From an uncultured bacterium (GTDB lineage: Bacteria; Babelota; Babeliae; Babelales; JABCYS01), in assembly GCA_963705705.1 (NCBI GenBank), contig CAVPKK010000007.1:268221-332220 (forward strand): a stretch of DNA of 64,000 bases, in the 5' to 3' direction. The notes below the pieces were generated by a model that was not told the origin of the DNA, searched no databases, and was given only the letters and a program-made list of their open reading frames with translations. Shown piece by piece: positions 38,912 to 55,341 of this stretch (the stretch's first letter is position 1; each line of letters begins with the position of its first letter). A program made the translations under genes and the position numbers.

Positions 38912-40105
38912 TTAAAGTTGCTGAATTTTATCAAGAAAAAATGACACTTCATCTGCAGTATTATACATGCCAAAACTAGCCCGAACCGCGGCATCCAAGC
39001 CTAACTGCTTGGCCAATGGCTGAGCACAGTTATGCCCTGCACGAACGCAAATATTGAATTGGTCCAGATAGGCAGCAACATCATGAGCATGCATGCCATC
39101 TACAATGAAACTTACTAAGCTTCCGCGCTTTTTTAATTCTTCGATGGGCCCCAGCAATTTAATTTTTGGCAACTTCTGCAGGCCCTCAATAGTTTGCTTA
39201 CACAACGTAGATTCATACTTCTCAATCGCGGGGCGATCCAATTGCATGAGGAAATCAATCGTAGCTCCCAGGCCAATAGCTTCAGTAATCGCTGGGGTAC
39301 CAGCCTCAAACTTTCGTGGTGCTGGTTGCCAGGTAGCATGATGGTAGTCAGTGGTAAAGACCATGCCGCCGCCATATTGATATGGTGCAACAGCATCATG
39401 AAGTTCTTCTTTAATAAACAATATGCCAATGCCGCTGGGCCCATACATTTTGTGGCCTGAAAAAGCTAAGAAGTCACAATTCAAATCCCTCACATCGATA
39501 GCTTGGTGAACCACAGACTGTGCGGCATCAACCAAAATTTTTGCACCGGCAGCATGAGCCATGTGTGCAATTTTTTTCACATCTATCTGTGTACCCAAAA
39601 CATTAGAAGTATGAGCAATCGCAACTAGCTTTACGCCTTTACCAATGCATTCTTCTGCATGTGCCATATCGAGCATGCCGTCCGTTAACAAGCGAATAAC
39701 CCTGAGTTCAGCCCCAATTTCATTACAAACCACTTGCCATGGCAAAAGATTACTGTGATGTTCCAAGGCCGAAATCACAACCACATCGCCTTTTTTTATA
39801 TGCTTTGTCGCCCAGGCTTGCGCAATAAAATTAATAGATTCGGTAGTGCCACGAGTAAATACAATTTCCTTGCTTTGGGCATTTAAAAATCTTGCCACTT
39901 TTGCACGCGCTTCATCAAACTTTTCCGTTGCATGTTCGGCCAGTTTATAAATTCCGCGATGCACATTGGCGTAGCCATGCAAATAAAATTGCTGCATAGC
40001 ATCAAGGACTTGTTGAGGTTTTTGTGCCGATGCAGCGGTATCGAAATAAATCAAGTCTGGATTGTGCTCAAACAATGGGAAGTGAGATCGGATATTAGTT
40101 TTCAT
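38912..40105 (-). CDS. sufS: Cysteine desulfurase SufS
   Basis: YFDTAASAQKP, ANVHRG, EHHSNLLPWQ, FSGHKMYGP, RAGHNCAQP. Confidence 0.96.
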   Translation of the reverse strand: MKTNIRSHFPLFEHNPDLIYFDTAASAQKPQQVLDAMQQFYLHGYANVHRGIYKLAEHATEKFDEARAKVARFLNAQSKEIVFTRGTTESINFIAQAWATKHIKKGDVVVISALEHHSNLLPWQVVCNEIGAELRVIRLLTDGMLDMAHAEECIGKGVKLVAIAHTSNVLGTQIDVKKIAHMAHAAGAKILVDAAQSVVHQAIDVRDLNCDFLAFSGHKMYGPSGIGILFIKEELHDAVAPYQYGGGMVFTTDYHHATWQPAPRKFEAGTPAITEAIGLGATIDFLMQLDRPAIEKYESTLCKQTIEGLQKLPKIKLLGPIEELKKRGSLVSFIVDGMHAHDVAAYLDQFNICVRAGHNCAQPLAKQLGLDAAVRASFGMYNTADEVSFFLDKIQQL

Positions 40106-43100
40106 TTTTTCAACTTGCTTTTGCTTATTGTTCTTCCGAGCTTACTTTCCTCAATTTTATCAAGTATCAGCTCTTTTCTGGCCTTTGGTACAGAGTCACC
40201 AACTTCCTTCAGATACTTGTTAAAGGAGCTTATAGCATCGTCAAATTCTCCTTCTTCTAGATAATCCATGGCTGATGCAAAAAGTGGCTCATTATTTAAT
40301 AAAGTATCCGCGCCATTTCTTTCTTGAGTAAGTTCCTTCGCGTATGGTTGTGATTCTTTTGCGAACTGCTCAAGGCCGAGTGTGGCTTTTTCAGGATCAG
40401 TTACCAACAGCTGACGGGCTTCTTGGTATTGTTGGCGCAACATTCCGACAATGTCTTCTTGGGGAGTTGGTGAGATCCGGGCAGGGGAAGGCGGTGTTAT
40501 TCGTCGTCCCGCTTGGAAGCTAGCCAATCGTTTTTCTACTTCTGCCAAACTAGCTTCGGCTTGTTTTTTTATTTTAGGGAAATCAATACTTTGCGGAATT
40601 AGATTTTTAAACCGTTCGCGCGCTTTTGCTAAATCGTTCATCTTGAACGCGGCTTTGCCCGAAAGTAATAGTGATTTGAGGTACTCTTGGTCAGCTGGAT
40701 AGCCCCGCAGCTGCCAACGATAGAGTTCTAATAATGGTTCGGCCTTGGCTGCATCTGCTACGCTGGCAGTCTTTTTCAAAAGATCCTCGGCATCGGAGAG
40801 CAGTTTATCCGTTGGCCAATCATTGATATCGATTAAATAGTCTTCACGAGTCTTTTGCAGTTGCTCATCTTCGGCTTCATAAACTTCTTTTCGCGCATCG
40901 ATCATAACAATAGCGACCGCATCTTTCTTTGGTAGTCTTTCATATACAATACGGTAATTGCCAACACGAATCCGCCAAAGCCCCTCGCCATATGAAAGCT
41001 TGATGGCCGAAGGATCCTTATGCCCAAGGCTCAGTTCTTTAAGGGCTTCCTCTGCTCGTGATTTTATGTCTTTTGGCAATGGCTCAAGTTGGTTATAGGG
41101 ATCAAATATAAACAGCAATTGTTGTGGCTCTGGCGCCGGTGTTGGCGACACACCTTTCTTTTCGGGAACTATGGCCAACTCTTTTTCAAGAACTCGTAGT
41201 TGCTGATTGACCTTATTAATAAAATCTCTTCGTTCCGGAATCTTTAGACCTGCCAATGCCTTTATAATGTCTCTTATAGTGTCAGCTCGTGCGCTCGATG
41301 GCTTTTCTTTATATTTTGCCAGCGCTTCCTCAACTTGAGTTTGAAGAGCATCTGCTTTTTGTTCTTTATATTGATCTTGCAAACCAGCTATTCGCTTTTG
41401 TAAAGTTGCATCAGTAATTCTTGCAAACTTGATGTCACGCAATAATTGTTCAGCGTCCGTAAGATTATTTTTAGCTAATGTTTCATCTAAACGTTGTACT
41501 AATTCTTGGGCTTTATGCTTTTCTTGTTCCTGCAATGCCTTTTTTTCTGCTTCTGTCATCTCAGTTACTACTGATATTGGCCGTTTGCTCCAAGTTTCAA
41601 TTAACTTATGGAGTTCCTCAATTTTTGATGCAAGCTCAGGCATCTGCAATTCTTCAATCTCTGAAACTGCCTTATTTGCAGCTTTCACTAAAGTTGGTGA
41701 TGGATTTTTTTTGAGAATATCCAAAATCTTAGATTCCTGATCCTTAATAAAATTATCTTTTATTTTTTTCAGCGTATCTCTAATTTCTATGATATTTTCT
41801 TCAAGTGATTTTTTCGTTGTCAATTCATGTACAGTTGTAATCTCTTTGGCAACCTGTCCAAGAAGTTTTTCTACATCATGAAAATCCTGCGCTCTTAAAT
41901 TCTTTTTTAGCATTATTGCTTTAATATTTTCTAACATCACTTGAATGGGCTCTTCCTTTTGAATCGCTATTTCTTTTGCAGGTGCTTGGCTTTTTTTAGG
42001 TTTTATAGGCAATCCTAATAAAGCTCCAATCTTTCTCATAATACTTGGGTTTGCTTTATTGAAGGCAGCATCAAGCATTTTCTTACTCTCCGGGCTGAAA
42101 AAAAGAAGACGGTCCGGCTGCTCAAGTAACATATCGACTATATGCTCCAAATTCTTGGCCACCGCAATCGATATCGCTGTTTGACCTTCTTTATCTTGGG
42201 CATTAATATTCGCATGGCGTTCAAGTAGTACACGAACAGCAGCTGGTTTATCGAGCAAAACAGCAAACATCAAAGGAGTAATGCCGTCTTGTGCATTCGG
42301 CAAATTAATATCTGCATTATGGTCCAACAGAAGGTTAATAATTCTGGGACTTTCTACGAATATAGCTGTGTTTAATGCAGTAAGGCTTTCCTCCGCCTGC
42401 ACATTAATATCAGCCCCCTGATCTAAATAATTCTTTAACTTTTGCTCATCTAACGTGCCTTCATGGATGTCGTTCATCATGCGCATCTCAGGTATTGTTA
42501 ACTCTCGTGCTACAGGCAATGGTGTCTCAGGTAAAGTTTCAAATTTCTGTTTTTCTGCATCAAGCAGAAGCTTCACAATACGTTTATGACCCATTTTTTT
42601 TGCACGGCTAAGGGCCGTATCGCCCTCTTTATTGCACGTACTAATATCAGCATTATGCTTAAGCAATTCAGAAACCATCTCCGCAGAGCCTGCGTTTGCA
42701 GCCATCATTAGAGCTGTGGTGCCATCCATGTCTTTTCCGTTAACCTTAGCGCCATATTTGAGTAGTAACCTTACGGCGTTGGCATGATTATTTCCAGCTG
42801 CTATCAATAAAGCTGGCCGCTCTCTTACCGCATCAATAGCATCAATGCTTGCGCCTTTTCTTAGAAGATCAATCAATGTTTTTTCGGTCAAATTTCCTTC
42901 AAATGCCCCATTTAATATCTCATAATCTAAAAGAGCTTTTGCTCTTCTTTCGGATGGGTTTATTTTTTCTGGCGGCTTCTTTTTTGCTTCAGCAATAAGC
43001 TTCGCGATCCCAGCAAAACCTTGTTTGCGTGCAATGCTTTCCGCATCCATACCTTGCCATTCTGCTAGATTAGCTTTTGCATTGGGGTCTGCTCCCGCGT

Positions 43101-55300: not shown

Positions 55301-55341
55301 AGTTGGACAATTATAAATCGGAACAATAGCTGACGTGGCAT
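52309..55341 (-). CDS. Secreted ankyrin + RelE-domain protein (copy 4)
   Basis: Two ankyrin blocks; RelE ~53261-53508; stop TAG overlaps the sufB GTG. Confidence 0.9.

Follow-up and report, generated by a model that had tools for sequence, protein, structure and literature searches.

In a likely Babelota parasite, seven copies of a predicted secreted repeat protein with a RelE-like domain are interleaved with suf genes

Why do genes for large, predicted secreted proteins stand inside a gene cluster for iron-sulfur (Fe-S) assembly? The question is raised by a 64,000-nucleotide (nt) stretch of DNA, hereafter the window, whose last base is the end of contig C7 in the assembly of an uncultured bacterium (G000; 1.38 Mb, 96% complete). 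On its minus strand seven paralogous genes (c1 to c7) lie in two blocks among the suf genes, in the order c7-c6-c5-c4-sufB-sufD-c3-c2-c1-sufS. A first-pass annotation had described this order together with an overlap at each effector-to-suf junction, and coordinates and motifs bear out both: the TAG stop of c4 and the GTG start of sufB have one base in common (TAGTG at 52311-52307), and the TGA stop of c1 overlaps the ATG of sufS by 4 nt (ATGA at 40105-40102). It was also right that sufC is absent from the window and that sufU is detached at 29489, the latter on the plus strand (29489..29857), opposite to the suf cluster. The reading that we favor, and hold to be fairly probable, is that insertion and duplication of genes for secreted proteins go on repeatedly in this lineage wherever housekeeping genes are only loosely linked, with sufB and sufS re-initiating translation from the copy upstream.

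The interleaving recurs across the lineage. We scored suf clusters in 74 relatives taken from 220 sufB carriers (mostly one per genus, on long contigs, in 13-20-kb windows; the count leaves out G000, its sister species G001, and G002), with open reading frames (ORFs) of at least 90 amino acids (aa) taken as inserts. Inserts were present in at least one suf junction in 31/74 relatives, and 27 of the 53 fully scored clusters were intact. They occurred at 5/63 sufC|sufB, 5/73 sufB|sufD and 24/54 sufD|sufS junctions. Another 20 sufD|sufS junctions were unscorable (sufS was far away in most of them, and in four it lay 9-15 kb off on the same strand), so the count is a floor. The first-pass annotation had proposed comparing suf synteny among relatives; the comparison did recover interleaving, but as a common feature of the lineage, which that annotation had missed. 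By a crude hydrophobicity rule, 41 of the 54 inserted ORFs appeared signal-peptide-like; 26 were co-directional with suf and 28 on the opposite strand. Among the 49 inserts of at least 130 aa there was no cross-genome match at E<=1e-10. A parallel to the window's cluster, with more even interleaving, spans 31 kb (G246:C1:336563-367764) and reads sufC, genes of 2096, 1430 and 1841 aa, sufB, 1747 aa, sufD, 1750 aa, sufS; its five co-directional inserts span all three junctions and run onto the suf genes with overlaps of -4, -1 and -11. They form two paralogue groups, and the three that were scanned had no Pfam or NCBIfam match. Similar cases occur in two species of one genus (G019 and G036), which carry 1800-aa secreted paralogues on both sides of sufS.

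We compared these rates with 41 control loci around rplA and atpG, counting ORFs of at least 130 aa. The rpmG-rpoC operon was broken at only 2/291 junctions, and one of these two breaks is due to a frameshift fragment in G000, while the non-ribosomal pairs tsaE|NYN, tdk|radA and NYN|atpG were broken at 4/40, 1/19 and 4/39, and three operon boundaries at 17/38, 9/31 and 7/23. At the same cut-off the suf junctions were broken at 4/63 (sufC|sufB), 5/73 (sufB|sufD) and 23/54 (sufD|sufS). In tests that are descriptive only, sufD|sufS did not differ from the pooled boundaries (p 0.48), nor did the other two junctions from ordinary non-ribosomal pairs (p 0.76); the break rates thus place sufC|sufB and sufB|sufD with ordinary pairs, and sufD|sufS with operon boundaries. 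Beside these control genes, nine ORFs lie between rpmG and tsaE in G000. A SufB genome scan covering mostly other phyla showed 5/40 complete clusters spanning more than 9 kb; loosely spaced suf genes therefore also occur outside this lineage. Suf interleaving is a recurring habit of the lineage, of which G000 is a strong example, and it is not special to iron.

Like the SUF operon sufCBDSU (TIGR01978/01980/01981/01979/01994), the locus keeps the order and strand of sufB, sufD and sufS; unlike it, the cluster spans at least 25 kb instead of the usual ~4 kb, holds seven foreign genes, and has a short sufD, a detached sufU and none of the known regulators sought below. Both sufB (50969..52309; TIGR01980, 675 bits against a cut-off of 346; GTG start) and sufS (38912..40105; TIGR01979, 511 against 475), on the minus strand like all cluster members, scored over their family cut-offs, and sufS was the sole cysteine desulfurase match in the assembly (E<=1e-8). 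sufD (50343..50846; 167 aa) comprises the SufBD core only, with its best match, TIGR01981, under that family's cut-off; G001 has a similarly short form. The suf genes are not contiguous with one another. No sufC exceeded its family cut-off anywhere in the G000 assembly, and since the contig ends at 64000 we regard the gene as unassembled. Within the 122-nt sufB-sufD spacer (50847..50968) lies an imperfect palindrome of ~78 nt, which has a single 79% copy elsewhere on the contig (C7:216806-216883) and is apparently absent from G001; folding of the spacer was no better than that of shuffles (z -0.75).

The spacing of the genes bears on how sufB and sufS are translated. From c7 to sufS the gaps, with overlaps as negative values, are 12 nt (c7-c6), 12 (c6-c5), 15 (c5-c4), -1 (c4-sufB), 122 (sufB-sufD), 81 (sufD-c3; 117 to a second ATG), 13 (c3-c2), -11 (c2-c1) and -4 (c1-sufS). 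The earlier description of the cluster as an interleaved and translationally coupled operon therefore fits both effector-to-suf junctions, which overlap, but not the sufB-sufD and sufD-c3 junctions, whose genes stand apart. Shine-Dalgarno scores amounted to no match for sufB (-2.9 kcal/mol) and sufS (-2.3), in contrast to matches of -4.2 to -10.4 kcal/mol for the six intact copies and sufD. As overlaps of 1-12 nt occur at 90/755 co-directional neighbours in G000, overlap at both effector-to-suf junctions is above background, though not rare. Among co-directional inserts in the relatives, 9/21 overlapped the start of the following suf gene by 1-12 nt, again above background (p 0.0005), and 7/35 overlapped the stop of the preceding one; overlaps of this size between adjacent suf genes occurred at 100/156 junctions. 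With no Shine-Dalgarno site of their own and starts that overlap the preceding copy, sufB and sufS are probably reached by ribosomes that re-initiate after translating that copy. It is therefore the suf genes that likely benefit from coupling, which these structures make probable.

Internal promoters or terminators, which could uncouple the suf genes from the effectors, were sought. The coding strand had no strong terminator-like hairpin inside the cluster and one after sufS (38580..38605, minus strand, 11 pairs), the probable transcript end. Promoter and terminator scans were no richer than shuffles (34 vs 40 and 15 vs 21), so internal promoters cannot be placed by them. Between sufS and the hairpin lies a 45-aa Cys-rich ORF (38629-38766, minus strand), which looks metallothionein-like and, if co-transcribed, would add a metal-related gene to the cluster; in G001 a different ORF, of 63 aa and rich in Cys and His, occupies the same place (L055 15734-15925, minus strand).

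What the inserted genes encode appears to matter more than where they stand. Copies c1 (40102..43881; 1259 aa), c2 (43871..47239; 1122 aa, extending 11 nt into c1), c3 (47253..50261) and c4 (52309..55341; 1010 aa) are of ankyrin type; the start of c3 is likely the second ATG, at 50225, which is paralogue-like and gives 990 aa. c5 (55357..58380; 1007 aa) and c6 (58393..61953; 1186 aa) read from a signal peptide through ankyrin or Sel1 repeats, respectively, to a helical region, a RelE-like domain and a TPR-like tail. c7 (61966..64000) is of Sel1 type, as judged by its edge; it retains a 618-aa ORF (61966-63822), and its 5' part, which is cut by the contig end, is out of frame with this ORF owing to a frame break near the 5' edge. 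The RelE-like domain maps to 40879..41073 in c1, 44684-44896 in c2, 48042-48254 in c3, 53263-53457 in c4, 56305-56499 in c5, 59179-59373 in c6 and ~62752-62988 in c7. All six intact copies have a signal-like N-terminus by a crude rule, followed by ankyrin (c1-c5) or Sel1 (c6) repeats, and share a C-terminal part of ~600 aa made of helical hairpins, the RelE-fold domain and the TPR-like tail. The domain is internal, with ~260-320 aa after it in G000, and stays constant while the N-terminal repeats vary. A structure model of the ~600-aa part (mean pLDDT 88, pTM 0.40, the latter leaving the domain packing uncertain) placed the helical hairpins before a predicted disordered linker and the alpha/beta domain, from which a helix would run straight into a TPR-like solenoid.

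Several comparisons assign the alpha/beta domain to the RelE fold. In the profile search 9/9 PDB hits were of RelE type (best E 4e-5), and by fold it matched with a Foldseek E of 3e-4 and Z of 7.0-7.7 for RelE chains and 8.8 for HigB2; across RelE, HigB and YoeB, Z was 7-8.8, where ~8 is middling, and the top rows were almost all RelE superfamily. Residues R970, R972, R977, R997 and Y1001 of c1 align without gaps to R58, R60, R65, R85 and Y89 of Pyrococcus horikoshii RelE (1wmi), and were kept, respectively, in 22, 24, 24, 23 and 24 sequences of a 24-row alignment that includes the seven G000 copies. The domain also has equivalents of the KL motif and of R61, R81, Y87, K52 and K54 of Escherichia coli RelE, R81 being mapped through the archaeal protein because the E. 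coli alignment was gapped near that residue. R61, R81 and Y87 are critical in E. coli RelE, which cuts on eukaryotic ribosomes too (PMC2807027). Among paralogues dN/dS was 0.15 in the RelE-like domain against 0.28 and 0.18 beside it, with dS near saturation. A ParE gyrase toxin was considered on account of Pfam ParE_toxin hits and rejected: ParE structures scored lower (Z 5.3-6.3), and the solved-sequence hits were those of RelE type. All 7 ParE-family hits in G000 sit within these long ORFs. No antitoxin gene was seen beside the copies, which are at most 15 nt apart, and no small gene that could confer immunity was seen downstream of them. From these sequence features the copies are likely exported mRNA interferases.

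A profile search of 1.84 billion representatives returned 22 proteins at 86-195 bits, five of them from the window, and then dropped to 67 bits, below which the hits listed were free RelE-sized proteins (68-118 aa) and one degenerate 613-aa fusion; long members pair the RelE-like domain with ankyrin, Sel1 or TPR repeats. Across the phylum's 261 genomes, all in one order, with three candidates scored per genome, long-ORF matches were found in five (G000, G001, G055, G061 and G219), and three further hits were to free RelE. The family is not tied to suf: G055 lacks sufB, and in both G061 and G219 the fusion gene and suf are on different contigs. The seven copies are the only members assembled in G000. 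A further Sel1-type copy, P0006, 75% identical to c7 and encoded on a 33,575-base ENA contig, possibly comes from an unassembled part of the array or from a close strain; a genome scan with P0006 found no further members, a metagenome scan gave at least 80 loci with 30-46% identity over the RelE core only, and ESM Atlas scores for the shared region were all under 0.9. Two other members, P0010 and P0012, whose longest contig is 7,670 bases each, may stand in tandem in the genome of another relative. L342 (G055:C2) and P0090 have a degenerate RelE site with His replacing the last Arg, and are by sequence natural candidates for inactive controls. In G055 (L062 8880-11359), Sel1 proteins ending in what by eye are RING-like Cys/His motifs adjoin the RelE fusion gene.

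The G000 proteins resemble known systems in part. They share fold, KL motif, and basic and Tyr residues with the RelE/StbE mRNA interferases (E. coli RelE, P. horikoshii 1wmi, Thermus thermophilus 2khe), but here the domain sits within signal-peptide proteins of 520-1260 aa with no adjacent antitoxin and up to seven paralogues. A type II RelBE module, by comparison, consists of a small free toxin beside its antitoxin gene, which is not the arrangement here. Rickettsia VapC2 is of PIN fold. It is also the nearest functional precedent, degrading host rRNA (PMC12321070), and, as proposed for the copies, is a toxin-antitoxin-type nuclease turned on a eukaryotic host; unlike the copies, it is a free toxin with an antitoxin. 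Polymorphic-toxin Tox-RelE is alike in using RelE as an exported toxin domain, of which the polymorphic-toxin survey gives a single instance (PMC3482391); such toxins carry it at C-terminal tips with immunity genes and are aimed at bacteria, whereas here the domain is internal, joined to ankyrin or Sel1 repeats and without an immunity gene. Xenorhabdus Txp40 (PDB 7xbj) has only the fold in common (Z 6.4, 14% identity). The main text of a 2026 BECR survey, which describes RelE-like proteins as mostly intracellular parts of toxin-antitoxin systems, had no match for 'ankyrin' or 'Babel' (10.64898/2026.08.28.747851).

The source is likely a protist parasite of the Babelota (Dependentiae). G000 has a small genome, three ATP/ADP translocase ORFs, an ankyrin expansion and, by a crude rule, signal-like N-termini in 567/1066 ORFs, and its phylum comprises a single order in the genome set; these traits agree with published accounts of the Babelota (PMC6561590, PMC4776705, PMC4378268). 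It also encodes three secretins. Signal peptides, eukaryote-like repeats and an intracellular-parasite genome, the features used to call Babelota effectors, are all present in the copies and their genome, and delivery to the host is predicted. Work on the Babelota, including Babela massiliensis (PMC4378268) and Chromulinavorax (PMC6561590; also PMC4776705), has described secreted ankyrin proteins along with tandem duplications and islands for host interaction, and the copies are alike in being signal-peptide ankyrin genes, tandemly duplicated and mixed with housekeeping genes. In the parts of these three papers that were searched, neither suf interleaving nor a RelE fusion is described: 'suf' had no match in PMC6561590 and only 'sufficient' in PMC4378268, and 'toxin' had none in two of the three. 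Neither feature was found in the literature searched; the supplements of PMC4378268 and of the BECR preprint could list such fusions.

We put about even weight on the following function for this cargo: Sec export and then type II secretion would deliver the proteins to the host, the ankyrin or Sel1 repeats would bind host partners, the RelE domain would cut mRNA in the ribosomal A site, and export would stand in for an antitoxin. An alternative, which we consider possible but on the doubtful side, is that the RelE-fold domain is no host-directed nuclease and either binds ribosomes or RNA but makes no cut or targets bacterial-type ribosomes (those of host mitochondria, prey or co-resident bacteria). 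An internal domain that the model joins rigidly to a TPR-like solenoid would suit that alternative, as would the mostly intracellular role described for RelE-like proteins and the account of one Babelota isolate enwrapped by a host mitochondrion. Equivalents of the catalytic Arg, Arg and Tyr are nevertheless retained in 23-24/24 sequences that are only ~20-35% alike outside G000, the pairing with ankyrin and Sel1 repeats suggests that the targets are eukaryotic, and the activity of E. coli RelE on eukaryotic ribosomes cited above also argues for a host-directed nuclease.

The sister species informs the history of the array. In G001, whose SufB is 91% identical to that of G000, the end of sufC is followed by 27 nt, one 721-aa ankyrin-RelE homologue, 104 nt and sufB; its sufD and sufS, on a separate contig, are 11 nt apart with no copy between. 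One copy at sufC|sufB therefore predates the split of the two species, and the proposal that the array expanded at two positions held up. Read most simply, the tandem growth and the second block both date from after that split, on the G000 branch; alternatively, G001 has lost them. The copies are mosaics: incompatibility between neighbouring informative sites was 0.283 against 0.397 when shuffled (0/300 shuffles as low), and segment trees conflict, the RelE segment joining c6 and c1 across blocks (99) and the upstream segment c1, c4 and c5 (90). Cross-block exact tracts reach 41 nt. The blocks have thus exchanged sequence, or arose from copies already mixed. A sufC remnant in the sufD-c3 spacer, as expected if the second block arose by duplication and deletion, was not supported (158/1000 shuffles scored as well).

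Such mosaicism with sufB-sufD retained, together with the cross-block tracts and the Fe-S clients of G000 (one radical-SAM enzyme and two HhH-GPD glycosylases, besides MnmA), would fit an unlikely alternative in which needed suf genes stabilise the array: crossovers between blocks would delete sufB-sufD and be purged, so that only gene conversion survives. The first-pass annotation had likewise supposed that embedded essential genes select against collapse; the recombination pattern agrees, but 'essential' is doubtful and the idea unproven, as sufB was found in 161/189 good genomes and not in 28, one of which belongs to the same family as G000 and is 99% complete. In five near-complete genomes without sufB (G003, G004, G006, G017 and G055) no radical-SAM enzyme was found in any, and in the two tested, G003 and G055, sufS was kept and sufC was not. 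SufBCD is useful in G000, yet the lineage can do without it; a role in tRNA thiolation may explain why SufS is retained. Stabilisation would moreover place no bar on collapse within one block, and it can be a side effect of the insertion habit and not its cause. The window holds a second tandem set of secreted-type genes (1719-15143, minus strand), in which neighbours overlap by 1 nt and three genes encode Sel1 repeats; this set persists with no Pfam-recognised housekeeping gene among its members, which also speaks against stabilisation.

Iron or oxidative co-regulation had been suggested as well, and the corresponding alternative, that effectors were placed in suf so that iron limitation or oxidative stress in the host switches both on, we regard as quite improbable. 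The common strand, the overlaps and the single terminator at the end would allow such a switch, the sufC|sufB position is common to G001, and giant co-directional suf inserts recur in several families. Against this, Fur and Rrf2 were over cut-off in 0/61 genomes, although search controls were matched in 13/14 and 14/14, and no Fur/PerR, IscR/Rrf2, DtxR, LysR/OxyR-type or SufR regulator was found in G000 (96% complete). The even split of relatives' inserts between strands (28/54 opposite), their lack of relation between genomes, the fusion family's independence of suf in G055, G061 and G219, and equal insertion rates at other junctions also run counter to it.

Misassembly of a repetitive region, a caveat raised by the first-pass annotation, is scarcely credible because G001 too has a homologue directly upstream of sufB: the contig end does fall within the array, c7 has its frame break, and some G000 contig ends carry foreign-looking sequence with rpoB and rpoC frameshifted, but the copies are only 64-89% alike in DNA (longest exact match 122 nt), sufB and sufS start in frame with N-termini of normal length, and one short-read contig bridges c4/sufB, matching with 0 differences and reaching 32 letters past the junction on its short side. 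The bridging rule was 31 letters, in runs from one study that may be of the source sample; a c1/sufS contig also had 0 differences but 26-30 letters on the sufS side, below the rule, and was not counted. Foreign-looking ORFs at three contig ends, together with the frameshifted rpoB/rpoC, suggest chimeric or error-rich ends in the assembly; the regions concerned are the right end of C3, the left ends of C5 and C6, and C4 1-8600.

Returning to the insertion habit, we envisage a start state with one copy between sufC and sufB, as in G001. This copy would have multiplied in tandem and given rise to a further block at sufD|sufS, where the clusters of relatives are interrupted most frequently, the two blocks becoming recombinant mosaics of each other. 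The cluster would be transcribed as a single unregulated unit that stops at the hairpin beyond sufS, and gaps would have closed until the suf starts, which have no ribosome-binding sites, overlapped the upstream stop. Coupling would then be to the benefit of the suf genes, and the effectors would be linked to iron by position.

A number of points weigh against this account. The insert-to-suf overlaps in relatives did not differ significantly from suf-to-insert overlaps (9/21 vs 7/33, p 0.13, two outlying rows dropped), and the 104-nt gap in G001 means that the copy/sufB overlap is not fixed. Co-transcription and coupling are inferred from sequence only, and the unassembled promoter region and sufC leave room for another regulator. 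The control genomes match the suf set only in part, the samples are non-random and kin are not independent, and the signal peptides in relatives depend on the crude rule. For the cargo, NCBIfam RelE_StbE was over cut-off in 1/4 domains tested, and fusion of the C-terminal end of the RelE domain to a helical solenoid, as modelled, could hinder A-site entry.

These results bear on how operons change and on how protists may be exploited. Large secreted genes are admitted into suf and at operon boundaries in this lineage but hardly ever into ribosomal operons, and once they are in, the downstream gene often re-couples; suf interleaving thus offers many independent natural cases of operons absorbing new genes. 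The RelE-fusion cargo matters more and is more novel than the interleaving. Taken whole, the proposal that a RelE toxin became an antitoxin-free, Sec-exported family cutting mRNA on the ribosomes of the protist host, with seven recombining copies that drive sufB and sufS translation and carry the Fe-S genes on the effector transcript, is tentative, falling a little short of an even prospect. Enzyme activity can be assigned for almost no Babelota effector, and an exported RelE with intact catalytic residues would provide a direct and cheap test of host translation shutdown by these widespread protist parasites, which makes the family worth testing.

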